Shown here piece after piece: positions 11,986 to 62,140 of a stretch of 64,000 nucleotides of DNA; position 1 is the first letter of the stretch, and every line of letters begins with the position of its first letter. Source of the DNA: a virus (Duplodnaviria > Caudoviricetes). Both the position numbers and the translations under genes were made by a program. The notes beneath the pieces are model-generated. The model saw only the letters and a program-made list of their open reading frames with translations. It had not been told where the DNA came from and did no database searches. The stretch spans positions 19,053-83,052 of the IMG/VR virus record IMGVR_UViG_2775507243_000004; one strand, given 5' to 3'.

Positions 11986-12202
11986 AATTAATAAAGAAGA
12001 ACTCATCGAGCTAACAGGGAAGCAGCAAACATCAGCACAAGTAAAATGGTTTAAACAGCATTTAAATATCAATATTGCTTGTGATGCGAAAGGGCCAATC
12101 CTTAATCATGCAATTTACAGTGAACTATTAAAAAAACAATATGGCCTGATACCTGAAGCCCCCAATGCTGTTAAACGCCCACAAGTAATATTGAGAAACT
12201 AA
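11972..12202 (+). CDS. Putative excisionase (DUF4224-like)
   Basis: EELIELTGK...AQVKWF...GP pattern; GGAG RBS; coupled to integrase. Confidence 0.75.
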   Translation: MSSIRINKEELIELTGKQQTSAQVKWFKQHLNINIACDAKGPILNHAIYSELLKKQYGLIPEAPNAVKRPQVILRN

Positions 12203-13344
12203 TGACTCGAAAACGTGAGAAAAATAAGGGACTAACCAATAGCAGGATTTATATTAAAAATAATCGCTATTATTTTTTCTCTGCCAATTACACAATTAGC
12301 CCAATTGATGGGAAGGCAAGGCAGTGGCATAGCCTTTGCCTAGTTTCAGATGGTGAATTAAATGCAAGGCTTGCCGCGCAAAAAATAATTAGCCATAACA
12401 CTCAAACAGATGAAGAAGGCAACTTTCCTACCCACTTTAAAAACTATGCATCTTATGTCTTTAAAAAGCGAGCGAAAGAAGCCCCAAAAGATCTACCACG
12501 CTTGCTGATGCACGAAACAGCCAATAAGAATTTAAATGGTATATTTGAAACGATTGAAACCGCATTTCGCCAATTTAATATTGTTGATGTACTTCCTGTT
12601 GATATCGCCTCTTTTGTTGACCAGTGGGAAGGTAAAAGAATGGCGCAGGTGTATCAATCGAGGTTATCTGATTTTTTTAAATGGGCGTGTCGGAGAGGAT
12701 ACAGAGCAGAAAACCCATGCAGAGAAATATCCGTCGCCAAGCCGAAGAAACGAAGCCGCTATATCACCGACGATGAATTTAACGAGGTAAAAGAAGCGCT
12801 ATTGATGGGGCTAGATGGCCAGCCAACACGAAGTGGCAAAATGGTCAGTTGCTACGTGGATCTTTGTTTCTTGCTGTACCAGCGAACAACAGAAATAAGA
12901 TTGCTGCGCTGGGATCAAATCACATCCGAAGGAATTTTATTTACGCCGACCAAAACAGAAAAAAGCAGCGGTGCAAAAGTACAAGTTCCAATGACCCAAG
13001 CAGTACAGGATGTTTTAAGTAGAGCAAGACAAGCGTATCCAGAGCGCGAGATCAAATCAGAGTATGTAATCCACACTCATGATTTAAAGCCTTACACGAC
13101 TACAGGAATAGGCTCAGCGTGGAAACGTGCAGCGCAACGAGCAGGTGTTAGCAATGCAACGCTAAAAGACTTACGAGCAAAGGCAATGACCGATGCAAAG
13201 CGGGATGGCTATACAGTGAAGCAAATCAGTGTTGGCGGTGCGCATACTGATGAAGAAATGACCGAGAGCTACATCAAGCTCAGGGAAACACCAGTCAGCG
13301 AGGTAGTTCTCAAGCTACCAGTAAAAAAACAGCCCGAAAAATAG
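12202..13344 (+). CDS. int: Tyrosine recombinase / phage integrase
   Basis: QRTTEI (R), KT, KDLRAK, GAH and TESYI catalytic residues; next to att. Confidence 0.93.
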   Translation: MTRKREKNKGLTNSRIYIKNNRYYFFSANYTISPIDGKARQWHSLCLVSDGELNARLAAQKIISHNTQTDEEGNFPTHFKNYASYVFKKRAKEAPKDLPRLLMHETANKNLNGIFETIETAFRQFNIVDVLPVDIASFVDQWEGKRMAQVYQSRLSDFFKWACRRGYRAENPCREISVAKPKKRSRYITDDEFNEVKEALLMGLDGQPTRSGKMVSCYVDLCFLLYQRTTEIRLLRWDQITSEGILFTPTKTEKSSGAKVQVPMTQAVQDVLSRARQAYPEREIKSEYVIHTHDLKPYTTTGIGSAWKRAAQRAGVSNATLKDLRAKAMTDAKRDGYTVKQISVGGAHTDEEMTESYIKLRETPVSEVVLKLPVKKQPEK

Positions 13345-13421: not shown

Positions 13422-13459
13422 AAAACAAAAGGGCTAGCTTTCGCTAACCCTTTGTTTTT
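13422..13459 (-). terminator. Terminator downstream of tRNA-Pro 3' end (also usable by int)
   Basis: AAACAAAAGGGCTAGC-TTTC-GCTAACCCTTTGTTTT hairpin. Confidence 0.7.
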
Positions 13460-13461
13460 AT

Positions 13462-13506
13462 TGGTCGGAATGAGAGGATTCGAACCTCCGACCCCTTGCA
13501 CCCCAT
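13462..13506 (-). other. att core: 3' fragment of tRNA-Pro(GGG), anticodon loop to CCA
   Basis: Minus strand reads ATGGGGTGCAAGGGGTCGGAGGTTCGAATCCTCTCATTCCGACCA; D-arm and 5' acceptor strand are absent. Confidence 0.9.
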
Positions 13507-13897: not shown

Positions 13898-15262
13898 TTA
13901 CTCTAAAATATTACCAAATATAATGCGAAGACTTTCATCTGATACGTCACGAGCATTTATTTTTTCTGCTGGTAACTCTAAAACATCTCTAATCTCTTGT
14001 AGTCTATTTTTCATTCGATCACCGACTGGAGAACGAATCAGCAATGGATCAACACATCCTAAGACTAACTCAAGAACTATATGCACAAGTACACTCTCAG
14101 ATGCTAATTCATCCAATTCAATACGAACACCACTAGGCAAATTTTTACCTAAAATTTCCAACAAGTATGGGCGAACATTATTAGCAATTTTTTTCAATTG
14201 ACCTAATAAATTTTCACCAATCACATCATCATCTAAAATCCAATTTTGAATGGCAATATGTGTTGGTAAATTGGAATTATTTCGTAATGTATTATTATTC
14301 ACAACAGGTTCCTTAGGAGAATTACAACTCTCAATCCAATTATCAATAGTAAAATCTAAAAAATTATTATTTTCAACCTCTTCATGGGAATAATTAGTCC
14401 TACAAAGTGTTTCATTTTTATACATTGAATATTTCTTCAATGCACGTAGCAATATAGGTGATTGAACGGCATCAAAATCAACTTTTGACAACGCTAATGT
14501 ATCTAAAAGCAATGAACTTGCCTCTAATGGTTTGATATTCTTTTCAATTAATTCAATTGATGCATATGAATTTTCACTAACAACTTTTGCAGCTTTTTCA
14601 AAATTTGTTTCATATAAATGCATGCATGTACTAATATGTCGTTGTATGCCTGGTTGTACCCCAAGCTCATTCGCGATGAATTGCTGTACCCCCCAGAAAG
14701 CAAACCAATTATATGGAACCCCAAGCCACAAATCATTTGAACGATTAATAACTGTCATCGACAATCGATTTTCATCCATACGAAGCATTACTTGTGTATT
14801 ACAAGGAATATCTCGTGATGAACTACTAATATCTTTCGCCGAATACATAGAAAGAACTACACGCCGACTAAAAGGTAGTTTCCTCAAATGTTCGATTGCA
14901 TCTTTAATTTGGTCAACGCCAAAATAACTCCTTAAACGAACCCCATAAGCACCATTCAGGGTTTCACCATCATCAGAGTATTGATCATAAGAAGGAAGAA
15001 TTTCTTGCAATGGAGCAAGCTTATTACTTCCAGTAAGTAACCATGCAGTTTCGACAAGTGCAAAAACAGGATTAATTGTCCTCCCTTGAAGAAAACAAAG
15101 TCGCTCACCTTGGTCGAGCTCAACACAAACATGACCTAGTTCAATACATGGACCAACCCTAGATTCAACCTTTGGAAGGTTGTTTTGAGTCGCAATATTT
15201 AAAAGCTGTAAATATGCCGCATTAGGAGAGAGTCCTCTTACTAAGATCACGGTAGTCTCCAC
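13898..15262 (-). CDS. Thymidylate synthase-fold enzyme (phage dUMP hydroxymethylase-like) with C-terminal extension
   Basis: INPVFALVETAWLLTG, YSDDG...GAYG.R, SRRVV, DIPC (catalytic Cys), RSNDLWLGVPYN and HLYE motifs. Confidence 0.85.
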   Translation of the reverse strand: METTVILVRGLSPNAAYLQLLNIATQNNLPKVESRVGPCIELGHVCVELDQGERLCFLQGRTINPVFALVETAWLLTGSNKLAPLQEILPSYDQYSDDGETLNGAYGVRLRSYFGVDQIKDAIEHLRKLPFSRRVVLSMYSAKDISSSSRDIPCNTQVMLRMDENRLSMTVINRSNDLWLGVPYNWFAFWGVQQFIANELGVQPGIQRHISTCMHLYETNFEKAAKVVSENSYASIELIEKNIKPLEASSLLLDTLALSKVDFDAVQSPILLRALKKYSMYKNETLCRTNYSHEEVENNNFLDFTIDNWIESCNSPKEPVVNNNTLRNNSNLPTHIAIQNWILDDDVIGENLLGQLKKIANNVRPYLLEILGKNLPSGVRIELDELASESVLVHIVLELVLGCVDPLLIRSPVGDRMKNRLQEIRDVLELPAEKINARDVSDESLRIIFGNILE

Positions 15263-15603
15263 TTAGAAAACTTATCACTGTTTTTTTTCATCTTTTCAAG
15301 ATAATTTGACTCAAGATCAATTCCTGTCTGGCCAGAAATTTTAACTAAATAAATAAATACATCAGTCAATTCTTCACTTAATAATGGCTTAGCAGTTTCG
15401 TAATCTAAATCACCACGTACTACTTTTTTTAAAATATTTGCATACTCTCCAATTTCACCGAGCATGCAAACAACTAAGTGCTCTAAATCCTGCACATTAG
15501 ATGATGTAATAGGCACATAAAATGGAACATTGCCTTGATGCTGCTTATCAAACTCTTTTTGAAGCTCAATTATTTTCTCTAAATCCATGTCACACCTATG
15601 CAT
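15247..15603 (-). CDS. MazG-like all-alpha NTP pyrophosphohydrolase
   Basis: GEIGEYAN..KK and EELTDVFIYL...GIDLE acidic motifs. Confidence 0.85.
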   Translation of the reverse strand: MHRCDMDLEKIIELQKEFDKQHQGNVPFYVPITSSNVQDLEHLVVCMLGEIGEYANILKKVVRGDLDYETAKPLLSEELTDVFIYLVKISGQTGIDLESNYLEKMKKNSDKFSKWRLP

Positions 15604-16492
15604 TTAAATTAGAGATTAAATTATCGATACTTTTTTGGTAAATTAATGTCGCATCAGCAATTGCCGTTCCATGAGATCTTTTTTTCCTTAATTGTTCTAA
15701 ATCACGAGCAGCTTCAATTGCGCCCTCCAACCTTTCAAGAGTCAATTGAGAGGTCAATTTTGGATCTAGTTCAGTCCCTTTTAACCCTGCCTCTAAAGCT
15801 TCTTTCAAGCTAAGCAGTGGAGCGGCAGAAACAACCGTTACAGACTCTTTAAGTTCATTAAGCATCTTACTTAAAATACTTAATGGGTTAACCTCATTTG
15901 TAAAATATCGAAGTAAGCTTAGGCTGCTTAAAGTTTCTAGACGTGGACGCACCAGAGAAGAAGAACTACTGTTGTAATATGCACGGAAAGCAAAAATAGT
16001 TAACTTTACTATTTTTAGATGAGGAATCCCCGCATAAATGTCAGCTAATGTTTGACGAATTTCTTCTAAATTAACTTTCAAAAAATTACAAACTTCTAAC
16101 GATCTAAAATAACAAGTACAATATAATACATCGTCTTCAATTTGACATTGTAAAATCATAAATGAAGGGATTGGTTTATCATCTTTACCAAGTTCAACAA
16201 TCTGCTCTTGTGAAATCAAAGAATAAAGAGCTCGATTACTTGATGAGTTTCTTTTTAGATCCTCAATAATATATTCTACCCCATCACCATAATATTGAGC
16301 ATGAGTGAAATACAAATCTGGAGGACACTTTTTAGAACGCCACTTTGCTGCAACGTTCTCAACATCTAGCATCACGAATCCAGCAAGAGCTGCTGTTTTA
16401 CACTCAAAGTTCAAAATCCAATTAAATTTCGCCCCGTGTTCCAATTGAACTTTGGCTTGCGCATGTAAGTCATACAAGCTAATTTCACTCAT
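15596..16492 (-). CDS. Degenerate thymidylate synthase-fold protein
   Basis: SNRALYSL, PIPSF (PC replaced by PS), LYCTCYFRSLEV....VN, in register with TS motifs. Confidence 0.6.
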   Translation of the reverse strand: MSEISLYDLHAQAKVQLEHGAKFNWILNFECKTAALAGFVMLDVENVAAKWRSKKCPPDLYFTHAQYYGDGVEYIIEDLKRNSSSNRALYSLISQEQIVELGKDDKPIPSFMILQCQIEDDVLYCTCYFRSLEVCNFLKVNLEEIRQTLADIYAGIPHLKIVKLTIFAFRAYYNSSSSSLVRPRLETLSSLSLLRYFTNEVNPLSILSKMLNELKESVTVVSAAPLLSLKEALEAGLKGTELDPKLTSQLTLERLEGAIEAARDLEQLRKKRSHGTAIADATLIYQKSIDNLISNLNA

Positions 16493-17108
16493 ACAATAGC
16501 TTTAATTGCTGCATTACTATTTTATGAATATAATTAGGGTCAAGAGTCGCATCCAAAATTAATTTCTTTCCTTTATATTCAGACATTACTCTCTCATAAT
16601 TCTCAGAAACTATTTTTAATTTATCAGCTTTCTCATAGCTATCAAGAATTGGACGATTACCTAAACGTCGTACAGACTCGTCTACTGGATTACGCAAATA
16701 CACAACCAGATCAGGATCTGGAAAGTCTTTATTCAGACGCTGTACAAGTTCCCAGTCAGAATCCTGAGTACAATGATATGCAAAAGATGAAAAATAATAG
16801 CGGGTACTAATCACTGAAAAGCCACGACTCATCATCTGAGTGACACCATCAGTGTCATTATATAAATGATCAAATCTGTCGGCAGAAAACAAATATGCCA
16901 TTTGATGATCAAAATGTTGAGCATTTTCTTGGAACTTCACACGCCCTTTAAATGCTTGCCGAATCATATTCCCAACAGGACCAGATGATGGCTCACTCGT
17001 CAGCATCACCTTATACCCTGAGGTCAAATAGGCTTTTTCAAGCATTGACGCTTGTGTGGATGTACCAGAACCATCCAAACCTTCAAAAACAATAAATTGT
17101 GGCTTCAA
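16485..17108 (-). CDS. dTMP kinase-like protein
   Basis: FIVFEGLDGSGTSTQ P-loop, TSEPS.GP, LFSADR..H, RY..SS.AY and PDLVVYL; TTG start with AGGTG RBS. Confidence 0.88.
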   Translation of the reverse strand: MKPQFIVFEGLDGSGTSTQASMLEKAYLTSGYKVMLTSEPSSGPVGNMIRQAFKGRVKFQENAQHFDHQMAYLFSADRFDHLYNDTDGVTQMMSRGFSVISTRYYFSSFAYHCTQDSDWELVQRLNKDFPDPDLVVYLRNPVDESVRRLGNRPILDSYEKADKLKIVSENYERVMSEYKGKKLILDATLDPNYIHKIVMQQLKLLYE

Positions 17109-17126
17109 TCTAATTACACCTAAACG

Positions 17127-17948
17127 TTATTTAATATCAACCAGACCCGTACTAGAATCTAGCGTTAAACCATAATATTTAATTTCTTTAATTTCCTGAT
17201 CATCGCAATTATAAATAGCCACGCTATTTATATACCCTGGTGTTAAATAACTCATGGATCCAACACCAGATATTTTCATCCCCCGAGCTCCGAGGCGACA
17301 ACTTAATCGAGCATGCTGATGTCCATGCAACAGGGCAGAAAATCCATAGTCATCCAACAAAGAAAGCACACTGTAAGCATTTCTTGTTGTAGAACTATCC
17401 TCATCTTCAACCGGAATAAAATGATGGTGAGCAATGGCAATTCTAAACCGATGAGAAGTCTTTTCAGGGCAATGTTCTTCAAGCAACGCTTTCACTTTCA
17501 CTAGATCAACTTTACCCATTTTGTGATCTAAATGATATGAAGTATTCATCAACAAAAAATCTACGTCATCACTCTTAATGAAGCATGCACCGCTATTATT
17601 AAACCGACACTGAGTATCATTTCGAATGCCAGCACTCCACGCATCAAAAAGCGAAAATCCAAGCCTCCCTCCACTTTTAATAAGATCATGATTTCCAGGA
17701 CAAACAAGAACATTTCTGAGATTAAAACCATTTTTAATTATGGCAGACCTAATGATTTCTTGCGCCTCAGCATACCCATCAGGACTACCCTTGAAAGTTA
17801 CATCACCTGAGATAACGAGAAACGACCCAATTTTGTTCTCAACAACGCCTAAAAGTGAATCTAAAGCAATCTTGATGTCACTACTTTTCTGATGAGCGAG
17901 AGGATTTCCAAAATGGAGATCGGAAATGTGTACAATATCAAACTTCAT
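17127..17948 (-). CDS. Calcineurin-like metallophosphoesterase
   Basis: All five motifs present: SDLH, SGD, PGNHD, HHH, HGHQH. Confidence 0.92.
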   Translation of the reverse strand: MKFDIVHISDLHFGNPLAHQKSSDIKIALDSLLGVVENKIGSFLVISGDVTFKGSPDGYAEAQEIIRSAIIKNGFNLRNVLVCPGNHDLIKSGGRLGFSLFDAWSAGIRNDTQCRFNNSGACFIKSDDVDFLLMNTSYHLDHKMGKVDLVKVKALLEEHCPEKTSHRFRIAIAHHHFIPVEDEDSSTTRNAYSVLSLLDDYGFSALLHGHQHARLSCRLGARGMKISGVGSMSYLTPGYINSVAIYNCDDQEIKEIKYYGLTLDSSTGLVDIK

Positions 17949-18123
17949 TATGCCAACATGAGTGTAATAGTAAGCAGCAGTATACCTAGCCTAGAATTAT
18001 TAGGGAGGTGCAACAGACAAGAAGTAAGTACTAAATCAATTATTAACACCTCACAATGCAAACCATTACTTACTTTGCATACCTTGATTTTTATTACTTC
18101 ACGTATCACCCACTATACTTCTC

Positions 18124-18275
18124 CCTAAAATAGCCAGCCCAGCGTCCCGCCTTCCCGTTGGTAATCACGAGTTTCTTGCAACTAACAATTGATGCTAACT
18201 CCCCCCGACCCAAGCAATTGTGGATAACGCCGGCCATGGCCAAGCCTTGATCAAACTCGAAAAGTACACCGTCCC
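18124..18275 (-). pseudogene. Degraded, internally deleted remnant of a dam-like methyltransferase 3' end
   Basis: 18231-18272 nearly matches 19916-19957 of the intact dam-like gene; 18124-18180 matches its last codons (LVITN...LF*). Confidence 0.7.
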
Positions 18276-18292
18276 CTTGTTTTTTTCACGCT

Positions 18293-19591
18293 CTACTGCC
18301 CACTCTCCGCCTCAACCCACAACCCCGGAAACAGGTACCTGAATAGCTTAATGGGAAATGCCAGCTTATAAGGGGCATGCAGTGATTCTGATTTCAGAAT
18401 ACCCAGGGTGGTCAGGTCTTTAATCACTCTGGATTGTGTGCGGTCAGAATCACCGCCCAGCATGGCTTTAAAATCTTGTTTAGGCATCTGGCCTGCATGC
18501 AGCAGATATTTTAATGGCAGCAGACTATTTAATTTGAGCAAATTGGGTGTTTCCGCTGAAACAGATTCTGCCATCAGCATTTTATGCAGCCGCTCTTCAA
18601 AGCCTGTCAATTCCAGCATTTGATTCATAAAGCTCACCTGATCAAGGCAGGTATCGAGCATAAAGTCGATAAATTGAATAAAGTGCTTTTCAGATAAATT
18701 ACCGCGCCCGTCCTGATCCCCTTCCCGCGGTAAATCAGCCCGAGCCAGCACCTCGTTATAGCGGGCGTGATTTCGCGCCAACCCTCTCATCGGCGACCAG
18801 ATCCCCTTGGTCAGCCCCAAGGCATGAAGGCCAGAATGGGTATGCAAACGGATAGTGCGCCCATTCCCATCGCCAAAGGGATGAATCCAGGCCAGCCTGT
18901 GATGCGCCGCCAAAATAGCAATCACGGCGCGCTCTCCCCTCAGCTCAAAGCGATAGCCATTATGGAACTCGTCCATAAACGCCGGCAGATAATCTTTGCT
19001 GGGCGGGATATGCAATCCCACCTGAACATCATGTTTACGCAATTGGCCTGGGGTCACCTCTTCATTCCAAGCAGAGCCATCCTGATGAACCCCACGCGCC
19101 ATGCGATCCTCCAGACTCAGATGCTGATACATCGCGTGATGTAAAGAACGAATAAATTCAGAACCAAAAAAAAGCCCCCCGGCAGGCAGAACACCCGGTG
19201 AGCCAATAGTGCCCTCTGCCCACACTTCAGCCTGCATACAAGCTAAAGCCGCCCGCTGCTTCTGCGCCTCATCCGGCCGGGCAGAGAAATCCTTGCTCAT
19301 GGCCTGCGCAATCAACAACGGGGTTGTATGCTGCCCCTCAATCTTATTGGTGTAATAAGAATTCATCGGCCGCAACGCCTCGCGCAGAATCTCTGCAATA
19401 CCCTGCGGGCAATGCTGCTGATAGGATGAATAGATCAGCGCCGAAGCCTTCTCTGATAGCGCCTCCATCTGAGGCGTGCCTTGGCGTGGCAGCAAGGGAG
19501 ACATTGAAAACGGGGAGGTGTACAAGCTCGGCATAGGGCAACAATCCTGCGATGATCTTTGGCGTAAACTTTGGCTATTTTTAAAAAACAC
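18293..19591 (-). CDS. Fic family protein (class II-like) with C-terminal winged helix
   Basis: HPFGDGNGRTIR Fic motif and N-terminal TNKIEG inhibitory motif; true start may be downstream. Confidence 0.9.
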   Translation of the reverse strand: MFFKNSQSLRQRSSQDCCPMPSLYTSPFSMSPLLPRQGTPQMEALSEKASALIYSSYQQHCPQGIAEILREALRPMNSYYTNKIEGQHTTPLLIAQAMSKDFSARPDEAQKQRAALACMQAEVWAEGTIGSPGVLPAGGLFFGSEFIRSLHHAMYQHLSLEDRMARGVHQDGSAWNEEVTPGQLRKHDVQVGLHIPPSKDYLPAFMDEFHNGYRFELRGERAVIAILAAHHRLAWIHPFGDGNGRTIRLHTHSGLHALGLTKGIWSPMRGLARNHARYNEVLARADLPREGDQDGRGNLSEKHFIQFIDFMLDTCLDQVSFMNQMLELTGFEERLHKMLMAESVSAETPNLLKLNSLLPLKYLLHAGQMPKQDFKAMLGGDSDRTQSRVIKDLTTLGILKSESLHAPYKLAFPIKLFRYLFPGLWVEAESGQ

Positions 19592-19712
19592 CTAACTATA
19601 GGTTTTATAACATATAATGATGCTAAAAACATCACATAAAAGCTAAATATTGGCGAAAATTTTGGCAGAAATAGTTACCTTAGTGCTTTAAGCAAAATAC
19701 TCTTTTAGCTAT

Positions 19713-20513
19713 TCAAAATAGTCCCCCCAAGTCCCCCGCATCCCAATTGGTAATCACCAGCTCTTTGCTGCTGGCAATCTGGCCTTGCTTACCATTATTG
19801 CCGTTGCTGTACTTGATGCTCAGCCCCTGCATGGTGAGGCCTTCGAAGGCTTGCCGGATGTCAGCGTGGTCGTTGATGCTGACCATTACCCTGCCCTGGC
19901 AATTGCGCATAAAGTCGGCCATGGCCAAGTATTGATCAAACTCGAACGGCACACCGTAGCCTTCGGTTTGCCAGTACGGCGGATCGCAATAAAAGAAGGT
20001 ATGGGCGCGATCGTAGCGGCGCATGCAATCCAGCCAGCTGAGGTTTTCTACCGCGGTACCAGCTAGGCGCAGGTGGGCAGAGGAGATATTTTCTTCGATG
20101 CGGCACAGATTAACGATCGGGGCCGTGGTGGCCGTGCCAAATGACTGGCCATTGACCTTGCCGCCAAAGGCATGCTGCTGCAGATAAAAGAACCGCGCTG
20201 CACGTTGAATATCGGTCAGCGTTTCTGAGCGCGTATCTTGCAGCCATTTAAAGACTTGGCGCGAGGACAGCGCCCACTTAAATTGCCGGACAAACTCTTC
20301 CATATGGTTTTGCACCACGCGGTAGAGATTGACCAAGTCGCCATTGATATCATTAATGATTTCAACCGGCGCAGGCACCGGTCTTAAGAAATACAGCGCC
20401 CCGCCGCCACAAAATACTTCTACATAGCACTCGTGAGGGGGAAACAACGCAAGCAGCTTATCCGCAAGGCGGCGTTTACCGCCCATCCAGGGAATGATTG
20501 GGGATGTTGACAT
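19713..20513 (-). CDS. Phage DNA adenine methyltransferase (D12/Dam-like)
   Basis: PWMGGK, YVEVFCGGG, INDINGDL and YCDPPY motifs. Confidence 0.93.
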   Translation of the reverse strand: MSTSPIIPWMGGKRRLADKLLALFPPHECYVEVFCGGGALYFLRPVPAPVEIINDINGDLVNLYRVVQNHMEEFVRQFKWALSSRQVFKWLQDTRSETLTDIQRAARFFYLQQHAFGGKVNGQSFGTATTAPIVNLCRIEENISSAHLRLAGTAVENLSWLDCMRRYDRAHTFFYCDPPYWQTEGYGVPFEFDQYLAMADFMRNCQGRVMVSINDHADIRQAFEGLTMQGLSIKYSNGNNGKQGQIASSKELVITNWDAGDLGGLF

Positions 20514-20670
20514 AGAAAGCTCCGGCCAAAGACCCGCTGATAGGGTCTGATTGGAGGCTCGGGGCCTTCAGATAATTGAATGCACCGCAACGCGGACATT
20601 TGATGGATAGCTCTAAATACCGACCCTCTGCGAGCTTTTTATGGCATTGGGCACAACGAATATTTTGCAT
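20476..20670 (-). CDS. Mu Com-like zinc-finger regulator
   Basis: IRCAQCHKKLA...IKCPRCGAFN; overlaps the methyltransferase start, as com does mom in Mu. Confidence 0.85.
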   Translation of the reverse strand: MQNIRCAQCHKKLAEGRYLELSIKCPRCGAFNYLKAPSLQSDPISGSLAGAFYVNIPNHSLDGR

Positions 20671-20680
20671 TACCCATTAT

Positions 20681-20694
20681 AGAACGATCGTTCT
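20681..20694. promoter_or_regulatory. Palindrome AGAACGATCGTTCT, candidate non-canonical LexA box for com-dam
   Basis: 10 bp upstream of com ATG; same core as the box before umuD. Confidence 0.7.
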
Positions 20695-20782
20695 GTTTGT
20701 TCCATGTTTTAAATACTTAATTTAGCCTCAAACAATAAACACTCAACTGGCCATTTTTTATCCCTAAAGGCTGCGAAAAGGG

Positions 20783-20965
20783 TTATCCACCATAACTAGG
20801 TTCATATTTAGCACGGCCCGTACTCCCTGGCTTAGTAATCCTGTTCAAGTGCGCACACTGAGGACACCAACTTCTATGCAACACCCGGCTTGGCGGAGCC
20901 TGCCAAATATGCCCGCGATGACACTGCCATGGCATTGGTCTGCCCTTTTCATGTCTGGTGGTCAT
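20783..20965 (-). pseudogene. Zinc-ribbon (treble-clef) domain fragment
   Basis: WQCHRGHIWQA...WCPQC; only 60 aa, looks like the C-terminal end of a larger protein. Confidence 0.5.
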
Positions 20966-21002
20966 TCGTCATATTTCTCTTTACCTCCCGCCTGACTGCA
21001 CT

Positions 21003-21028
21003 CAAAATAGAACGATCGTTCTATTTTG
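21003..21028. promoter_or_regulatory. Perfect 26-bp palindrome CAAAATAGAACGATCGTTCTATTTTG, candidate LexA box for umuDC
   Basis: Directly upstream of umuD; GAAC-N4-GTTC core. Confidence 0.78.
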
Positions 21029-21040
21029 GTGATACCCCCA

Positions 21041-21484
21041 ATGGTTAATCTTCATACGGCTGATTGGCCTGTTTATCGCTGTGCTGGTTCGGCCCATCGT
21101 ATTCCTCTGGCGTATTGCGATACACCGATTCATGCGGGATTCCCAAGCCCCGCCGAGGGCTATCTCGATGATTATCTAAGCCTTGATGAGCATCTAATTC
21201 ACGATAAAGCCTCGACGGTCTTACTGCGTACTACAGGCGATTCGATGATAGACGCCCATATTTGTGATGGGGATATATTGATTGTGGATCGTGGCAGGCA
21301 GGCTGTTTCGGGCGATATTGTGGTAGCGTCTTTGGAGGGTGAATTCACCTTAAAGCGCTTGATTATCCGTGGCTCACAGTTGATTCTGCAGCCGGCAAAT
21401 GCTTTGTTTTCGCCTATTGTGGTGAGCCCAGGGCAAGAGCTAGAGATCTTTGGGGTGGTATCGGGTATTGCGAGGCGGCTTTGA
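21041..21484 (+). CDS. umuD: DNA polymerase V accessory subunit UmuD
   Basis: AGFPSPA cleavage site, GDSM serine and TLKR lysine of the S24 peptidase. Confidence 0.93.
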
Positions 21485-22755
21485 TGTTGCGGCAGATGGC
21501 ATTGGTGGATTGCAATAATTTCTACGCGTCCTGTGAGCGGGTATTTCAGCCCAAATTACGCACGCGCCCCATTGTGGTGTTGTCGAACAATGATGGCTGT
21601 GTGGTCGCACGTAGTGCGGAAAGTAAGGCCTTGGGTATTCCTATGGGCGTGCCGCTGTATCAGATCCGTGATTTGATTAAAGAGCATGGCGTGGTGGTTA
21701 GATCGAGTAATTACGCGCTGTATGGGGATTTAAGCCGTAGGGTGATGACAATTTTAGGCCGCTATTCTCCGCAGCAAGAAGTCTATTCAATCGATGAGAG
21801 TTTTTTAGATTTAAGCGGCTTTGCCAATGTCACGCAATACAGCCAGCAAATACGCCGTGATGTAAAGCAGCGTACGGGTATTCTGGTGAGTGTGGGGATT
21901 GCACCTAGTAAAACACTGGCTAAGCTTTGCAATCATGTGGCGAAGAAGATCCAGCCCTGGGCGGCAACAGGTGTTTGTAATCTGCATGAGATTGAGCCAT
22001 CTGCGCTTAAAGACTTACTGCAAAGTCTGCCTGTAGGTGAAGTATGGGGGATTGGTCCACGCTTGGCCCGCAAGCTGGAGTTTGATGGCATTTGCACGGT
22101 GTATGACTTGAAGTGTGCACCGGCCAGCCAAATGCGCAGCCGTTACAGCGTATTGATGGAGCAGATCATTCGCGAGTTAAATGGTGAGGCCTGCTTGGAG
22201 CTGGATGAGGTGCCGGTAGCTAAACTGCAAATTATGTCTAGCCGCTCGTTTGGAAGTAAAACAGGGCTGCAGAGTGAGATTCAGGCCGCCGTTGCTTTGC
22301 ATGTAAGCACGGCAGCAGAAAAGCTACGCCATCAGCAATCGCTGGCCAGCCAGTTGATGGTGTTTATTCGCACCAATCCATTTAGTGAGCGTGATTTACC
22401 GATGCGTCGCTCTATTGTGATGCAGCTGGCTAATCCAACAGATGACACTTTATTGCTACAAAGCGCTGCGATGGCAGGCTTGCAGCAAATCTTTGTGCCG
22501 GGCTACCCCTATCAAAAAGCGGGGGTGATGCTGGATGGTATACAAGCAAAAGCTGCGCAACAGATGGATCTATTTGCAGAAGCCGCCAGCCCGCAGCGGG
22601 AGAAATTAATGGCGGCAATGGATACGATCAATCAGCGCTTTGGTCGCCATACCCTGCGTAGCGCCGCAGAGTTGATGAGCCACGCCAGCCAGATGAATCA
22701 GCATCATCGATCACCACGCTATACAACTTGCTGGGAGGAGTTGTTGAGTATTTAA
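21481..22755 (+). CDS. umuC: Y-family DNA polymerase V subunit UmuC
   Basis: [26 protein letters not shown] and SPRYTT motifs. Confidence 0.95.
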
Positions 22756-23161: not shown

Positions 23162-24268
23162 TTATTTTTTTGGCAGTAATGGCTCCCCCCACTCTGCACG
23201 GATTTCTGGAGGGAATGGGGCTTCGAATGCGGTTTTATGCGAAAGCCAATTAAAGGTGCCCCAGAGTAAATACAAGGGTCCAAAGATAGGGAAAAACAAA
23301 AAGGAGATCACCACAAAAATAGGATGGTCCTGATTCCACTTTTTTATTTTTGGGCCATATGGGCCAATACACCCCATAGATTGCCACCAACTATTAGGGG
23401 CAGCTTCGGCTAAAGTTTCGCCAACAGGCAAGGCCGGACCGTTTTCTTCCATATAGGCATGCAGATACGCCCATGATGCCCGAACGGAATGTTCACTCAT
23501 GACCAGTGGATTACCAATCGTAAAGAAATCAACAAAGTCTGGCATTGCCTCATGCTTTAGCATTTGATCCCATGCTTTATCATGGTCACTTTTGGCGACT
23601 TGTTTTTGTGCAAAATCAGGATCTTTAATTCCCACACCTAGGGAGTGAACCGTCGATGGTAATTGCCCCAACATAACAACTTTTGAAACATAAACAAATA
23701 TTAATGAATTCCAATCGTATTCAATAATCACTGTTGGCCAAGCATACAATGGATTGCGTTTTTTAAAACTTTTTCTTATATAATCAATAAGCCCGGGTGT
23801 GTCACGAAAAACTCTATAAACTTTTTGCTTTTTCTTATCAAAAATTAAGCTATCGTTTTTAAGAGAAAACATATCAGCTCTAAGCTGATAAAGCCCAATA
23901 TGAAGTGCATAAAACACACCCAAGCCACTAAGAGTCATAAAAACAAATTTAAATAAAAAAGTGAATAATCCTTCTATTTCTAATTCAAAAAAGCAGACAT
24001 ACAATGCGTATGACATTAGGGGTAAGCCCCCAAAAAAGACAAGTAGCGAAAATAAGGTGACCAAGCCTCTTTGATAATGAGTTGTACTCGCCAGCTCGAT
24101 GGCCTCTGGGTAAATCGTTTTAACGCCGTTCAAGCTGCTACCTTTGCACCGCGCAGTCGTTTCTTTACTTAGGTATGCTGCAATATCAATGCTAGATACA
24201 TCAATAATGGCGGAAGGGTATTCGCCCTTTAATAGGCGATAGGCTGTTGTTGAGGCAGTTGGAGTCAT
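23162..24268 (-). CDS. Putative T6SS immunity membrane protein copy 2 (DUF6708-like)
   Basis: Two N-terminal TM helices, FDKKKQKVY, EYDW, WAYLHAYME.GP and a C-terminal TM; paralog of 24368-25504. Confidence 0.75.
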   Translation of the reverse strand: MTPTASTTAYRLLKGEYPSAIIDVSSIDIAAYLSKETTARCKGSSLNGVKTIYPEAIELASTTHYQRGLVTLFSLLVFFGGLPLMSYALYVCFFELEIEGLFTFLFKFVFMTLSGLGVFYALHIGLYQLRADMFSLKNDSLIFDKKKQKVYRVFRDTPGLIDYIRKSFKKRNPLYAWPTVIIEYDWNSLIFVYVSKVVMLGQLPSTVHSLGVGIKDPDFAQKQVAKSDHDKAWDQMLKHEAMPDFVDFFTIGNPLVMSEHSVRASWAYLHAYMEENGPALPVGETLAEAAPNSWWQSMGCIGPYGPKIKKWNQDHPIFVVISFLFFPIFGPLYLLWGTFNWLSHKTAFEAPFPPEIRAEWGEPLLPKK

Positions 24269-24367
24269 AAGCTTTTAATTTTTTAGATGGGATTGAATGA
24301 TTAATCTATTTGCTATGATTCCCACTTCACCCGCGGCTATCGCACAAGGCAATAGCCGCGTTAAGGC

Positions 24368-25504
24368 TTATTTTTTGGGCAGTACTGGCTCTCCCCACTC
24401 TGCACGGATTTCTGGGGGGAATGGGGCTTCGAATGCGGTTTTATGCGAAAGCCAATTAAAGGTTCCCCAGAGTAAATACAATGGTCCAAAGATAGGGAAA
24501 AACAAAAAGGACATCACCACAAAAATAGGATGGTCTTGATTCCACTTTTTTATATTTGGACCATATGGGCCAATACACCCCATAGATTGCCACCAACTAT
24601 TAGGGGCGGCCTCAGCTAAAGACTCACCAACAGGCAAGGCTGGGCCGTTTTCTTCCATATAGGCATGCAGATAGGCCCATAATGCCTGCACAGAATATTC
24701 ACTCATGACCAGTGGATTACCAATGGTAAAGAAACCAACAAAGTCTGGTATTGCCTCGTGCTTTAGCATTTGATCCCAGGCTTTATCATGGTCACTTTTT
24801 GCGACTTGTTTTTGTGCAAAATCAGGATCTTTAATCCCCACCCCCAGGGTGTGAACCGTTGATGGTAATTGCCCCAACATCACAACTTTTGAAACATAAA
24901 CAAAGATTAAAGAATCCCAATCGTATTCAACAATCACGGTAGGCCAAGCATAAAATGGATTACGTTTTTTTAAGCTGTTTCTAACGTAATCGATAAGGCC
25001 AGGTATGTTTCTAAAAACACGGTAAACTTTTTTCTTTTTCCTATCAAAAAACAAGCTGTCGTTTTTAAGTGAAAACATATCGACTCTAAGTTGATAAATG
25101 CCGAGATGAAATGAGAAAAATACACTTAAAATACAGATTGTCAGCCCAAAACTCACCATTAGGAAAAGCACCACATCTAGATCAGAGATTGCTGCTGAAA
25201 ACAACAATAGTCCAATATAAGTGCCATATAACATTACGGGAAAAAAACCAAAAATAACAAGCATTGCAAACACAGTTAAAAGGCCACGCTGATAATGAGT
25301 AGTACTGGCCAACTCGATGGCAGCTGGATAGATCGTTTTAACTTCGCTCAGCGTACTGCCACTTTGCCGCGTGGTTGTTTTCTTATTCAGATACGTGACA
25401 ATGCCCAAGCTGGATGCATTGATCATTGCTGGCGGGTATTCACCTTGCAGTACACGATAAGCAGTGGTGGTTGCCGTATTTAATGTCATTTTTAATAAGC
25501 TCAC
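24368..25504 (-). CDS. Putative T6SS immunity membrane protein copy 1 (DUF6708-like)
   Basis: Same architecture; overlaps the effector stop codon. Confidence 0.78.
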   Translation of the reverse strand: MSLLKMTLNTATTTAYRVLQGEYPPAMINASSLGIVTYLNKKTTTRQSGSTLSEVKTIYPAAIELASTTHYQRGLLTVFAMLVIFGFFPVMLYGTYIGLLLFSAAISDLDVVLFLMVSFGLTICILSVFFSFHLGIYQLRVDMFSLKNDSLFFDRKKKKVYRVFRNIPGLIDYVRNSLKKRNPFYAWPTVIVEYDWDSLIFVYVSKVVMLGQLPSTVHTLGVGIKDPDFAQKQVAKSDHDKAWDQMLKHEAIPDFVGFFTIGNPLVMSEYSVQALWAYLHAYMEENGPALPVGESLAEAAPNSWWQSMGCIGPYGPNIKKWNQDHPIFVVMSFLFFPIFGPLYLLWGTFNWLSHKTAFEAPFPPEIRAEWGEPVLPKK

Positions 25505-28365
25505 AGATATTTAATCGAGGCGGGTGCAGATTTATTTACGGGCGAAGGTTTTTTTTCTTCATATTTAATTTGAGGTTCAGATTCAGATTGGCGGCTCTTT
25601 TTTAAAGCCTTAAATAAAGCTTTTTCTTCTTCTGCCGATGTACTAAACCTATTTTCTTTACCAAAATAGCAATCTTCGGCCCAATCCTGTAGCGCGGTGG
25701 GTGTTAGCATTGCAGAGCCAGAATATACAAGTACACCTAGCCCCATTAAAACCAAGGCCCAGCCGGTTAAGCTCATACCCAAAATAGCAATCCCACCCTC
25801 TGTGGCCACAGCTGTAGCAGAAACAATCTCCCCTGTTCCTAGCCATGTAGCAACTATTTCTGTTGTTGCCGCAATACCAGCAACTCCACCTGCACCATAT
25901 AATGCACCAGTAAGGAACCAAGAAGCAGCTAATTTATTGTTGTGTTTATAGTTTTCCCCAGCAAAAACAAAAGCCTGCGCACTATCCACCAGCAAAGCCC
26001 CCCAGCCCGCATAGCCCCCTACGGCTTTTAAAACCATAGTAAGAGCACCATGCTTTGCAAATTGCGCCGCAGCAATACCTGCTATATCCCCAGTTGCCCC
26101 AACCGTCCCAGAGCCATTACTGGCAATCCCAAACCAAGCATCGCGCAAAGCTTTTTGATCTTCTGGGCTGGCAGCAGCTAAAGATTGAAGGCTGCCATTT
26201 AAGCCCAGCATTTGCAGGGATAAAAAGCCGATGGCAATGCGGCCTTCTGCCTTGATAAAGACCGCTTTACTACCACGCCAGCTGTTTTCTTTTAAGTTAT
26301 ATAAGGCTTCTTTGGCCGTCTCTGCCACGTGCCTTTGCTGCGCAAACATTTTGCCAAAATCCTCTGCCGATACTTTTTGTATCCCCTCTAAGCCTTGTGC
26401 GGTTAAATTGAGTTTCGAGACTTTGAGGGATACTTTTTCAGCGTCTTTTAGGGCCGTGGCGCTTTGTGTAGCTTGCTTCAGCTTATCGGTATCGGTGAGT
26501 ACATGCAGCTCAATCAAGCTTTGCTTGCGCATGCTATTTATCAGTTTTTTACTTGGCGTGTAACGCTTACTAGCAAGTAATGCAATCGCCTCATCAAAAG
26601 GCAAGAACACACTGACTAATAGGGGCCGAGGCTTGATCTTGGTTTTATTAAGCACACCAGCCAGAATATGCTCCATATTCTGGCCAAGCAAAGTCATGCC
26701 CAGTAGCTTACCTTCTATTACTTTAAAGCTACTGTGCTCGCTTGCGTAGCCAACCGCCCCGCCAATTAGCGCTGTAGAAACGCCCTGATGAAAGCCAAAG
26801 ACCGCCTCATTCAGCCAGCTAAACTTAGGGCTAAGCTGTGGCATAAGTAAATCTTTGAGCAGATTATAGGTTTTGGCCTGATTATCTTCGGCCACATATT
26901 CAAACAGCGATTTTTGATTAGAAAGCTGTGCGCGCAGCATCACTGCATCCTGCTCACTAATTTTTTTGATTGCCTGTTTATATGCAAGCTCAGCGCTGCT
27001 AGGGCCTAGGCTGCCCCCGCCGTAAACATGAAAAGCCTCCTCGCTATAGCAAGCCCCCGCACTATGGTGGGTTTGCTTAGGATCGTTCGGGTCATTTTCA
27101 TCAAAATGCAGGGCAAAACAATCAGTCACGTTTTTTTGAGAGGCAGCGACGTAATCATCATCGTATGAGGTGATGATCTGATCCATCTCAGCCATTTTTT
27201 TATCATACTCGAGCATAAACTGTGCACGTTTTGGCTCATCAAAAAAAGTACTTAGTTTTGCCCAGTCTGTTTGGGTGCGCTCATTAGCCTTCGTCTTACG
27301 AAGTGCATCATCTTCCAGCTGATAAACCTCTCCCATACTTGCTGGTGTAACAGGCTGCCCCGCATGAGTTGGCTTCCATACTGTGTCTTTTAGGCTAGGT
27401 CGAAAAGAGGGGTTAAGTTTGTTTTTGTCATATAGCGCTTTGTTCATTGAGCCTATACGTCTTTGTGCCCCATCGAATAAGGTGGTTCCAGTCTTCTTAT
27501 AATGATCATCACCGATGCATTTCTTTAAACCAATAAGCAAGCCTGAGCATAAGACACCCCGACTGTAAGGGACGGCAACTTCACTCTTCCTCACCAGCGC
27601 ACGCATGCGCAAGTGATTGAGCTCGGCAGAAACCGCAACTGGGTCTGGTAGGGCAAACACAAGGCCTTTATCTTTGGTCTTGGTGTGCATATTGCCCAAT
27701 TGCTGCATATGGCCATTCAGTTGATCAAGCGCATCTACTCCGCCTTTAAAGGGGAAGTAGGGCTCCGCATCTTTGCCCGGGCTTACATTGCGCAGCGCAT
27801 ATTCAGCAACAAATTTCCCTGGGCTTTCTGCCTTGGCAACAAATGCATTATCTGGTGCTTTTCCGCTATCTAAGTAGGCTTTAACATCAAGGCATTGCAT
27901 GACTTTGGGATTGGCTTGATTGGCTTTTTTTAGCTTGTCATTCCATAAGTTGGCGCTATACGCCAGCCATATTTTCCCCGTTTTATGCGCTTGGGGAATC
28001 GTCAGCAAACGCACTTTATGCAAATGGCCGGATTTATTACAAGAAAAAGGCTCTGCTAAATAAAAGGAGGGATGTGAGGCAGAGTAAAGCGCCCCTTCTG
28101 GCGTAATCCGGTAAATATCCCAGCCATCTTTTTTGCCTGCTGGCGGGGTTTCATAAAACACATATAAATAGCCCCGGCGCAGGGTTCGCAGTACATAGCG
28201 CGATTGCTTAGGCGTAGCAAGCTGAGCCGCTTTTTGCGCAATGGCGTGCGAAAGCAGCTTTGCACTGCCGGATGGCTGTAAATCTGCTTTATTCGCAATC
28301 ACTGAGGGGCGCACCAATAGAATAGGCAGTCCACTTTTTTCACACGCTCTACAGGTATCTGTCAT
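25501..28365 (-). CDS. T6SS effector, BTH_I2691/VasX-like N-terminus with hydrophobic pore-forming-type C-terminus
   Basis: CRAC..GLPIL.VR, YVLRTLRRGYLYVF and LPDPVA...ELN; several Gly/Ala-rich TM segments; ends LQDWAEDCYFG. Confidence 0.8.
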   Translation of the reverse strand: MTDTCRACEKSGLPILLVRPSVIANKADLQPSGSAKLLSHAIAQKAAQLATPKQSRYVLRTLRRGYLYVFYETPPAGKKDGWDIYRITPEGALYSASHPSFYLAEPFSCNKSGHLHKVRLLTIPQAHKTGKIWLAYSANLWNDKLKKANQANPKVMQCLDVKAYLDSGKAPDNAFVAKAESPGKFVAEYALRNVSPGKDAEPYFPFKGGVDALDQLNGHMQQLGNMHTKTKDKGLVFALPDPVAVSAELNHLRMRALVRKSEVAVPYSRGVLCSGLLIGLKKCIGDDHYKKTGTTLFDGAQRRIGSMNKALYDKNKLNPSFRPSLKDTVWKPTHAGQPVTPASMGEVYQLEDDALRKTKANERTQTDWAKLSTFFDEPKRAQFMLEYDKKMAEMDQIITSYDDDYVAASQKNVTDCFALHFDENDPNDPKQTHHSAGACYSEEAFHVYGGGSLGPSSAELAYKQAIKKISEQDAVMLRAQLSNQKSLFEYVAEDNQAKTYNLLKDLLMPQLSPKFSWLNEAVFGFHQGVSTALIGGAVGYASEHSSFKVIEGKLLGMTLLGQNMEHILAGVLNKTKIKPRPLLVSVFLPFDEAIALLASKRYTPSKKLINSMRKQSLIELHVLTDTDKLKQATQSATALKDAEKVSLKVSKLNLTAQGLEGIQKVSAEDFGKMFAQQRHVAETAKEALYNLKENSWRGSKAVFIKAEGRIAIGFLSLQMLGLNGSLQSLAAASPEDQKALRDAWFGIASNGSGTVGATGDIAGIAAAQFAKHGALTMVLKAVGGYAGWGALLVDSAQAFVFAGENYKHNNKLAASWFLTGALYGAGGVAGIAATTEIVATWLGTGEIVSATAVATEGGIAILGMSLTGWALVLMGLGVLVYSGSAMLTPTALQDWAEDCYFGKENRFSTSAEEEKALFKALKKSRQSESEPQIKYEEKKPSPVNKSAPASIKYL

Positions 28366-29357: not shown

Positions 29358-29374
29358 TAATTTTGGCCTGTGTA

Positions 29375-56386: not shown

Positions 56387-56603
56387 GCTGTACTTCCTCA
56401 AATTAACGACATCTTCTTGACAAGAATAAATGTATTTATCCTAATTTATTAGAAATAATACAGCATATTCATAAAGCATATGAATATCTATAACTTAGCT
56501 TCATCGTTATCGTTTTTTTCGACTACAAACCTTGTTATGCTTGACTTGCTCACCAGTGCTGCTTATCCATTCCCGAATAACCGAAGACTTAAAACAAAAA
56601 TAA

Positions 56604-61807: not shown

Positions 61808-62140
61808 ATGATTACCGCCGATGACATTATGACCACCGACATTGCTGCTCATTTTTTAAAACTCACACCCAAAGCACTCCGGCGAAAAGCCAAAGCCGGC
61901 CAAGTACCAGCAACAATTATCACCGGCAAATGGCTCTTTAATAAAATTGATTTAATTGATTGGCTACGCCAAAACTCAACTAAGCAAAGAACACCAATCC
62001 TTTACCTGGAGCAAAAACCTTGTCTATCAAAAAGCGTGGCAACATCTGGTGGGCTCGATTCACACATGATGGCCAAGAAATACAGCGATCTTCTGGGACT
62101 GAAGACAAAGCCGCTGCACAAGAATGGCACGATCAACTAA
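61808..62140 (+). CDS. Excisionase-like HTH protein
   Basis: AAHFLKLTPKALRRKAK.G.VP....GKWLF...DL..WL; overlaps integrase. Confidence 0.8.
   Translation: MITADDIMTTDIAAHFLKLTPKALRRKAKAGQVPATIITGKWLFNKIDLIDWLRQNSTKQRTPILYLEQKPCLSKSVATSGGLDSHMMAKKYSDLLGLKTKPLHKNGTIN

Follow-up and report, generated by a model that had tools for sequence, protein, structure and literature searches.

A mobile five-gene cassette predicted to remodel thymidine nucleotides at the cargo end of a lambda-like prophage

What could five adjacent genes, whose products resemble enzymes that act on pyrimidine deoxynucleotides, be doing at the cargo end of a prophage? We address this question for a 64,000-nt stretch of Caudoviricetes DNA (IMG/VR record IMGVR_UViG_2775507243_000004, positions 19,053 to 83,052; hereafter the window), in which a cassette of five co-oriented open reading frames (ORFs) occupies positions 13898-17948 on the minus strand. 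From its upstream end, the cassette encodes a calcineurin-like phosphoesterase (PE; 17948-17127, 273 aa), a dTMP-kinase homologue (TMK; 17108-16485, 207 aa), a protein that resembles a degenerate thymidylate synthase (TSd; 16492-15596, 298 aa), a MazG-like pyrophosphohydrolase (15603-15247, 118 aa), and a second thymidylate synthase (TS) homologue (TSx; 15262-13898, 454 aa as an ORF). Our tentative proposal is that these genes make up a self-contained, mobile system for remodelling the pool of thymidine nucleotides, most likely as an antiphage measure: it would remove dTTP and dTMP and supply 5-hydroxymethyl-dU nucleotides. The evidence that bears on this proposal and on its alternatives is set out below.

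Gene order and conservation of the cassette

The first-pass annotation of the window described five co-oriented, AT-rich, and tightly coupled genes, and both the ORF list and the GC profile agree with it. PE and TMK are separated by an 18-nt gap, the later junctions overlap by 8, 8, and 16 nt, and GC content is 0.34-0.38 across 14-18 kb compared with about 0.50-0.54 on both sides. The overlap between the MazG-like gene and TSx is probably only 4 nt (GTGA), with TSx starting at the GTG at 15250, since this codon is preceded by GGAGA and both the relatives of TSx and an ESM Atlas record begin at the same residue. The operon promoter is presumed to lie in the 344-nt intergenic region upstream of PE (17949-18292, minus strand), between that gene and a Fic-like gene. 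A scan for consensus promoters and terminators found sites no more numerous than in shuffled sequences and none inside this 344-nt gap. Searches of the window with Rfam and ARAGORN found nothing, the only tRNA fragment there being a 48-nt repeat described below.

The view that the five genes form a conserved and horizontally mobile unit is borne out by loci with the same gene order in many unrelated genomes. Relatives of TSd number at least 128 in 90% clusters, and 1.84 billion representatives include 289 of the family at E <= 1e-3; of the names given by the source databases, one is “thymidylate synthase” and every other is “hypothetical”. With pattern scans we recovered 17 loci in GTDB species genomes, one in IMG/VR, and 73 in metagenomes, where some loci duplicate those of metagenome-assembled genomes (for example, L065 is the same as L012), so that the loci are not all independent. 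According to the record titles, the genome loci come from at least six phyla, with Pseudomonadota, Campylobacterota, Bacillota, Bacteroidota, Gemmatimonadota, and Geobacter among the names. All five genes are found in the order of the window in 15 of the 17 genome loci, the exceptions being L004, which has no TMK, and L015, which is rearranged. This arrangement is far beyond chance, as the same genes recur in one order across many genomes that are not related.

For gene architecture, we used the 34 loci in which 2.6 kb or more of sequence follows MazG. The order PE-TMK-TSd-MazG-TSx was seen in 24 of them, PE-TSd-MazG-TSx in three, PE-TSd-MazG-TMK-TSx in two, and PE-TSd-MazG-(C-domain)-TMK, with no TSx, in two. 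The remaining three carry PE-TSd-MazG only; two of these are near-duplicates and one (L093) has a different kinase. PE, TSd, and MazG are thus each present in 34 loci, TSx in 29, and TMK in 28: the invariant core is PE-TSd-MazG, and a kinase of some kind is nearly universal.

The cassette is cellular rather than a property of lytic phages, because TSd has no match among 50,697 phage records and only one locus in IMG/VR. In 40 related genomes the cassette was not found, the only hit being one weak partial match (E 2.7e-4) in another family.

Active sites and domain fusions

TSx matches Pfam Thymidylat_synt at 7.3e-29 over residues 39-240 of 454. Its catalytic part spans about residues 1-317 (14312-15262) and is followed by a helical C-domain (13898-14311, minus strand; about residues 318-454 and the stop codon), as delimited by alignment of long and short TSx proteins. 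The active-site signature comprises C154, D151 at position C-3, N155, R174-S175-N176-D177, and N185. In alignment with the host ThyA, the dUMP-site residues Cys146, R166, S167, D169, and N177 are found in TSx as C154, R174, S175, D177, and N185, while the bulky hydrophobic residue expected at the L143 position is replaced by Asp151. A study of the TS family states that Asn or Asp at N177 sets dUMP or dCMP as the substrate, that hydroxymethyl products are associated with an acidic L143 residue and a bulky hydrophobic one excludes water to give a methylated product, and that D169N marks 5-hydroxy synthases (PMC13326640). TSx has the cysteine, Asn at the N177 position, the retained Asp169, and an acidic residue at L143. 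It is therefore a predicted dUMP hydroxymethylase, in so far as these published residue rules apply.

The same residues recur across the family. Asp is present at C-3 in 53 of the 53 TSx ORFs with the motif, and the D169 and N177 positions, readable in 52 ORFs, are Asp/Asn in 48, Asp/Asp in three, and different in one. TSx homologues with Asp rather than Asn at the N177 position were seen at L019 8196-9149, L060 2915-3901, and L085 14128-15060. By the published rule, such variants would use dCMP, and forms of the cassette that make hm-dC may exist. The closest phage relatives of TSx are TS homologues of PaMx11, M6-like, and Bordetella phages; TSx and PaMx11 gp51 have the motifs D-x-P-C-N and N-R-S-N-D in common, and host ThyA differs from both. 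PaMx11 gp51 adjoins the experimentally characterised genes gp46-gp49 for hypermodification of 5-hydroxymethyluracil (hmU) (PMC8989533).

These residues bear on two functions that had been suggested for the cassette from its sequence. The production of a modified dU nucleotide fits best, as the TSx signature resembles that of the dUMP hydroxymethylase of PaMx11. The opposite idea, in which dUTP or hmdUTP is pushed towards dTTP, is disfavoured by the hydroxymethylase signature, and the restoration of dTTP against hmU or dU phages was set aside because this signature is not that of ThyA.

In loci with a short TSx, a small gene is usually found downstream; a hidden Markov model (HMM) of the C-domain matches it over its whole length, though only weakly (1.6e-4 to 2e-3), and the HMM also matches separate ORFs in further loci. 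A search of the ESM Atlas with the C-domain gave no usable match.

The best solved relative of TSx is the CMP hydroxymethylase MilA (2e-18), the first enzyme of mildiomycin synthesis. This kinship recalls a different kind of product, namely a free toxic nucleoside or base, such as 5-hydroxymethyl-deoxyuridine, released against competitors in a MilA- or BcmA-like manner. TSx would make 5-hydroxymethyl-dUMP (hm-dUMP) and PE-TSd would dephosphorylate it, for which a TS-like pocket on PE could hold the TSx product. We consider this explanation very improbable: no exporter, glycosidase, or tailoring enzyme is conserved beside the cassette, variants without TSx occur, and the genetic context is rich in mobile elements and restriction-modification (R-M) genes.

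TMK belongs to the dTMP kinase family, as had been suggested, with matches to Pfam Thymidylate_kin (1.3e-38) and to TIGR00041 (149.4 bits, above the cut-off of 83.25). Its activity is uncertain, since the P-loop lysine is absent. The P-loop reads EGLDGSGTST, with Thr16 (codon at 17061-17063) at the position where Lys is expected, so that the segment GSGTST departs from the Walker A pattern G-x-x-G-x-G-K-S/T; the host Tmk has GAGKST. Among 65 TMK ORFs from 91 loci, this position is Thr in 51, Ser in two, Lys in seven, and truncated in five, and all seven Lys-bearing ORFs belong to the rearranged architecture. TMK is also the best conserved of the five proteins, with a mean identity of 58%. In L093, which otherwise seems to have PE-TSd-MazG only, a different P-loop kinase (GTTGSGKS; L093 2336-2953) is encoded directly after MazG, which suggests a non-orthologous replacement of TMK.

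TSd has no Pfam match and only weak matches to TS, and a profile of its family gave only chance-level matches when compared with PDB sequences, with TS at an E-value of about 0.5. Its link to the TS fold comes from a structural model and from hhalign. The AlphaFold2 model, built from 22 relatives (pLDDT 84.7), resembles TS, MilA, T4 dCMP hydroxymethylase, and the dCMP hydroxylase of phage HY126 in Foldseek (~3e-5), and hhalign aligns TSd with the TSx family at an E-value of 9.5e-6, placing S110 on C154. The catalytic cysteine of ThyA is missing from TSd: Ser110 stands at its position, while R87, R130, E133, and N141 are kept and a C-terminal helical extension is present. Ser110, Arg87, Glu133, and Asn141 are invariant among the 22 aligned sequences, and a PIPSF/PLPSF motif is found in 76 of the 81 TSd ORFs with a pattern match (11 more ORFs had no match). 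The C-terminal helices show no similarity to the C-domain of TSx (hhalign probability 0.2%). The earlier label of a degenerate TS thus holds, with a TS-like predicted fold and a serine where the catalytic cysteine is expected. We propose that TSd is a catalytically dead TS-fold protein that may supply a pocket for uracil or thymine nucleotides.

With both TS homologues and the kinase described, an ordinary metabolic role can be weighed, in which the cassette would be a spare set of TS and TMK for nucleotide metabolism or pool sanitation, accompanied by a house-cleaning MazG and a phosphatase. MazG and DCTPP1 enzymes are known house-cleaners, the family matches of TMK and TSx are clear, and RefSeq names the E. 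coli copies of the cassette metallophosphoesterase, hypothetical protein, MazG, and thymidylate synthase. The host, however, has a ThyA and a Tmk of its own. Against the NCBIfam models for TS, TSx scores at best 85 bits where the cut-off is 174.55; it misses every ThyA equivalog cut-off and has a hydroxymethylase signature instead. One of the TS copies is catalytically dead, the kinase has no P-loop lysine, and the unit is rare, AT-rich, and mobile. A metabolic role is accordingly hard to credit, and a plain thyA-complementing cassette was set aside on the same points.

The remaining two proteins are hydrolases. PE matches Pfam Metallophos (5.6e-13) and has a complete set of metal motifs (DxH, GD, GNHD, HH, and GHxH). 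Its best NCBIfam match is the anti-phage phosphoesterase DS9_1 (2e-24; 86.3 bits against a cut-off of 420), and the second, DS8 (3.7e-11), is also below cut-off; by sequence, PE appears most similar to the metallophosphatases of the validated DS-9 and DS-8 systems. The MazG-like protein matches Pfam MazG at 3.6e-4, below the Pfam cut-off, and the PHROG family MazG-like at 1e-6. It is of the all-alpha NTP pyrophosphohydrolase type and retains E50xxE53 and E77E78xxD81. The best solved MazG relative is dCTP pyrophosphatase 1 (DCTPP1; 5.4e-5), with the metal-binding motifs aligned.

PE and TSd are physically linked in part of the family. Fusions of the two were found in 13 representatives of 569-588 aa, and the ESM Atlas holds a 69-member cluster of the PE-TSd fusion with a TM-score of 0.81 across the whole of TSd. 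In unfused loci, the two genes are adjacent wherever TMK does not lie between them. A confident model of one fusion was obtained (pLDDT 92.3, pTM 0.72), in which the PE half is nearest to Rv0805, GpdQ, SMPDL3A/B, and Lmo2642, all of which are phosphodiesterases; SbcD/Mre11 and 5'-nucleotidases rank lower.

Alternatively, TSd may be a sensor rather than a substrate guide. In such a sensor-effector form of abortive infection, TSd would be a receptor for a pyrimidine dNMP that signals infection (for example, hm-dUMP or dTMP from host DNA degraded by a phage, or a phage-made nucleotide) and would activate PE and MazG, which would then collapse the dNTP pool. The part of TSx and the kinase would be to produce this ligand or to mark host DNA with hmU, so that its breakdown gives the ligand. 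One preprint describes a precedent, the m6-dAMP-triggered PUA-Calcineurin-CE-HAD system (bioRxiv 10.64898/2026.01.15.699771), and swapping its PUA for a dead TS fold yields exactly the core that is invariant here, PE-TSd-MazG, with TSx and TMK dispensable. Consistent with a sensor are the similarity of PE to the DS9_1 model, the nearness of the PE fold to small-molecule phosphodiesterases, the fusion of TSd to PE in the 13 representatives, and the loss of the TSd nucleophile with retention of the residues that contact base and phosphate. Ligand binding and allostery of TSd would nevertheless be pure conjecture, there is no PUA or HAD domain in the cassette, and PE reaches only 86 of the 420 bits required for DS9_1. 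A kinase that is nearly always present would also be superfluous to a pure sensor-effector, and the host would have to tolerate hmU in its DNA. We regard the sensor-effector explanation as the main alternative to our proposal, though less likely than it.

A more specific version, in which TSd binds hm-dUMP released when a phage breaks hmU-marked host DNA and thereby triggers PE and MazG, is unlikely. If true, a TS fold would have been recruited as an immune receptor, and a nucleotide that the cell itself makes would serve as its alarm for “damaged self”, much as m6-dAMP does for PUA-Cal-HAD; it would follow that hmU is put into the DNA of some bacteria by the bacteria themselves, and on purpose. 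An earlier suggestion that the cassette makes a nucleotide second messenger survives in altered form in the sensor-effector explanation, by analogy with PUA-Cal-HAD, in that TSd may be a nucleotide receptor for PE.

A candidate hydroxymethyluracil route and its mobile carriers

We return to the remodelling of the thymidine-nucleotide pool, which remains our preferred explanation. The phage route to hmU DNA uses a dUMP hydroxymethylase, a dTTPase, a dTMPase, a dNMP kinase, and a dCMP deaminase (PMC8989533). Four of these five roles would map, by sequence, onto TSx, MazG, PE (with TSd), and TMK, and it is because of this correspondence that we read the cassette as the hmU pathway in a cellular, mobile form. 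Sequence, fold, and comparative genomics show the gene set and how it is conserved, the signatures of the active sites, the fusions of PE to TSd, and the mobile context, whereas all substrates, the way in which flux runs, regulation by infection, if any, and the role in defence itself are inferred. In the proposed sequence of steps, the MazG-like pyrophosphatase would convert pyrimidine dNTPs, probably dTTP and dUTP, to monophosphates; PE, guided by the uracil/thymine-nucleotide pocket of TSd, would further degrade thymidine mono- or diphosphate; TSx would hydroxymethylate dUMP to hm-dUMP; and, as a fourth step, the TMK-like protein would phosphorylate this product. The net effect would be that the DNA of a replicating invader is starved of T and/or built with hmU, and a pre-replicative pathway of hmU phages would thereby have been turned against invaders. 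We read the purpose as defence because of the carriers and neighbours of the cassette, described below, and the kinship of PE to DS-9 and DS-8.

Several observations weigh against this proposal. Of the 60 readable TMK ORFs, 51 have Thr where the P-loop Lys is expected, a change that would normally abolish kinase activity and would break the fourth step. In the modelled fusion, the PE fold appears nearer to phosphodiesterases than to 5'-nucleotidases, which makes the dTMPase role a guess. TSx is absent in five of the 34 long loci, so hydroxymethylation is not essential to the core, and there is no dCMP deaminase among the five cassette genes. Constitutive activity would also put hmU into host DNA, and we identified no regulator or trigger. 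PADLOC 2.0 gave no match to a system or candidate beyond a weak one of TMK to PDC-M51B. Finally, many of the flanking ORFs are housekeeping genes, and the defence neighbours reported below were tallied without a control set.

The GC content of the cassette is below that of its flanks in 17 of 17 genome loci. In the single IMG/VR locus, the whole cassette lies beside an integrase-like gene and a Dam methylase; the latter (L022 4362-5000) is a close homologue of a Dam methylase in the window. Two E. coli IncHI1B plasmids carry PE-TSd-MazG with TSx as two ORFs. In one of them, pEC2-4 (L025 10138-11072), the TSx halves are 192 and 123 aa, and chromosomal copies that are 99.8-99.9% identical are annotated as intact; the split in the pEC2-4 record may reflect a frameshift or a sequencing error. 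The intact four-gene form is found in five of 5426 complete E. coli genomes, and in E. coli G3/10 it lies in an island rich in insertion sequences (ISs), flanked by ISs, together with a toxin-antitoxin pair and an AlbA-family protein. This variant surfaced in a protein search of plasmids; megablast of the window cassette against E. coli genomes gave no match.

Flanking genes were counted as family tallies in two sets, without a control set. The first (126 ORFs from 16 loci) contains three to four integrase domains, IS transposases, a BrnA antitoxin, two HNH nucleases, one C5 methylase, PDC-S08, and PDC-S12. In the second (150 ORFs from 17 metagenome loci), the R-M genes comprise three to four type I methylases, two type I restriction and two specificity proteins, and three type II methylases. 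The same set includes CARF6 (two), ResIII (three), Schlafen/AlbA_2 (two), integrases (four), resolvases (three), RepB (two), and one P2-type replication protein. These tallies suggest a mobile, defence-rich neighbourhood.

Mobile carriers would also suit a role in anti-restriction, in which a mobile element, by expressing the cassette during its replication or transfer, replaces T with hmU in its own DNA and so escapes restriction in the next host, as with Mu Mom and hmU phages. The enzymes parallel those with which phages make hmU DNA, TSx is closest to hydroxymethylases of phages with hmU-derived bases, the carriers include a prophage end, the IMG/VR contig with its integrase and Dam methylase, and conjugative plasmids, and in the window the cassette runs in the same direction as the late genes of the prophage. 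We nonetheless regard anti-restriction as improbable. TSd occurs in none of the 50,697 sequenced phages and once in IMG/VR, many loci are situated among housekeeping genes, and neither flank set has a phage structural family in its list of 25 families. In the window, an opposite-strand umuDC separates the cassette from the late operon and the cassette has its own 344-nt upstream region; variants without TSx also exist.

The prophage that carries the window cassette is lambda-like, 50.6 kb long, and bounded by 48-nt repeats of tRNA-Pro, with the cassette at its far cargo end. The distal att junction (13459-13506) is a direct repeat of the 3' end of tRNA-Pro(GGG), with 48 identical bases aligned. 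The 24-nt core of the repeat is present exactly twice in the genome, at 13459-13506 and in the tRNA-Pro(GGG) gene at approximately 64134-64210 (L021 1487-1563), which starts about 134 nt past the end of the window. On the tRNA side are an integrase (62020-63033), an excisionase-like helix-turn-helix protein, an S24 repressor, and a lambda-type gpA terminase; tail and lysis genes are also present. The description of the cassette as lying at the att-proximal cargo end of a prophage is correct for this lambda-like element, with one amendment: the integrase at 12202-13344, although 550 bp away from the cassette, is that of another prophage, P2-like and on the other side of the repeat, which also has a PHROG replication protein A, tail genes, and an ogr-like gene. 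Two prophages are therefore in tandem at one tRNA site, the P2-like element abutting the 48-nt repeat from the left.

The far-end cargo consists, in order, of a type VI secretion system (T6SS) cluster of VgrG, DUF4123, VasX-like, and DUF6708 genes, umuDC, a Dam-type methylase, a SoFic-like Fic protein, and lastly the cassette. Next to the cassette, 18293-22755 encodes the Fic protein, which matches PADLOC SoFic (1.3e-21), an orphan Dam-type methylase (MTase_II, 2.5e-92), and umuD/umuC, which are on the strand opposite to the cassette. The T6SS auxiliary cluster (23162-32020), between the lysis genes and umuDC, encodes VgrG (881 aa), a DUF4123 adaptor, a VasX-N toxin-like protein (968 aa), and two DUF6708 proteins, and is an unusual cargo for a lambda-like prophage. 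Two more AT-rich genes, at 55085-56401 (33% GC) and 63053-64000 (31% GC), encode an FRG-domain protein and a 315-aa ORF, respectively, and are probably further prophage cargo; the 315-aa ORF, between the integrase and the tRNA, has no Pfam or PHROG match.

Comparison with known systems

The combination of genes had not been recognised as a named system, and we reached the same view. No system or candidate in PADLOC 2.0 was matched by several components; isolated weak matches linked TMK to PDC-M51B and VakA and the N-terminus of PE to an effector model and to PDC-S60, with none for TSd, MazG, or TSx. In NCBIfam 20.0, no defence model was matched above cut-off, and TSd, MazG, and TSx matched no such model. 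The literature that we searched contains no description of this gene set, a statement that does not extend to the figures and tables S6-S8 of PMC13092281, where a related operon may be present.

The text and legends of that source describe one or more validated E. coli systems, found with DefensePredictor, with a TS, a dNMP kinase, a 5-hmdU DNA kinase, NMAD, and metallophosphatases, and state that MazG was without earlier validation in defence (PMC13092281). As far as the text and legends allow a comparison, such a system and our cassette have in common a TS homologue and a nucleotide kinase, which in the published case belong to a phage-protective bacterial operon. The cassette differs in having no match to the 5-hmdU DNA kinase or NMAD and in having PE, TSd, and MazG.

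A second likeness is to PUA-Calcineurin-CE-HAD and DS-9. In that system, the sensor of m6-dAMP from degraded host DNA is a nucleotide-binding domain that is not catalytic and is fused to a calcineurin-like effector, and it drives dNTP depletion with a second phosphohydrolase; rare variants of the family have MazG, and some are linked to modified-base operons (bioRxiv 10.64898/2026.01.15.699771). The cassette likewise has a calcineurin-like PE with DS9_1 as its best match, a fused or adjacent module that is putatively non-catalytic and ligand-binding, and a second phosphohydrolase. It differs in that the module has a TS fold rather than a PUA and that a hydroxymethylase and a kinase are added; Pfam and NCBIfam gave no family match to a PUA-like sensor or a HAD phosphatase in the five proteins.

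The phages with hmU-type DNA (SPO1, PhiW-14, M6, ViI, and PaMx11) offer the closest parallel in enzymes, with a dUMP hydroxymethylase signature together with a pyrophosphatase, a phosphoesterase, and a kinase (PMC8989533). In contrast to the phage pathway, the cassette is cellular and mobile, with no TSd in the 50,697 phage records, and it adds a TS-fold pseudoenzyme coupled to a phosphoesterase. Its kinase is of the cellular TMK family without the P-loop Lys, and the roles of MazG, PE, and TMK are predicted. The five genes include no dCMP deaminase or polymerase, and no 5-hmdU DNA kinase or aGPT-Pplase either.

The T4 pathway to hm-dCTP, which consists of the gp56 dCTPase, the gp42 dCMP hydroxymethylase, and the gp1 kinase, is similarly built from a pyrophosphatase, a TS-fold hydroxymethylase, and a kinase, and T4 dCMP hydroxymethylase is among the fold matches of TSd. 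Here the setting is cellular, and 48 of 52 TSx ORFs have Asn, not Asp, at the position of N177, implying uracil over cytosine. Nucleotide-depletion defences such as dCTP deaminase, dGTPase, and AvcD starve phage replication by destroying one dNTP. The cassette differs from these in its enzymes, in having thymidine as the nucleotide concerned, and in that a substitute nucleotide is apparently made.

If our proposal is correct, bacteria and mobile elements captured the phage hmU-DNA pathway and turned it on invaders, the much-studied TS fold acquired a new ligand-binding role, and a TMK family without the Walker lysine is under strong constraint all the same, as its mean identity indicates. The cassette is small (about 4 kb) and a close four-gene variant already resides in E. 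coli, which makes these possibilities directly testable. Among known defences that target nucleotide pools, some act on dCTP, some on dGTP, and PUA-Cal-HAD on dNTPs generally; to our knowledge and in the searches made here, none acts on thymidine nucleotides or includes a TS-fold pseudoenzyme. Against this background, the unusual features of the cassette are the coupling of TSd to a calcineurin-like PE, a conserved TMK without the P-loop lysine, and a hydroxymethylase with an extra domain.

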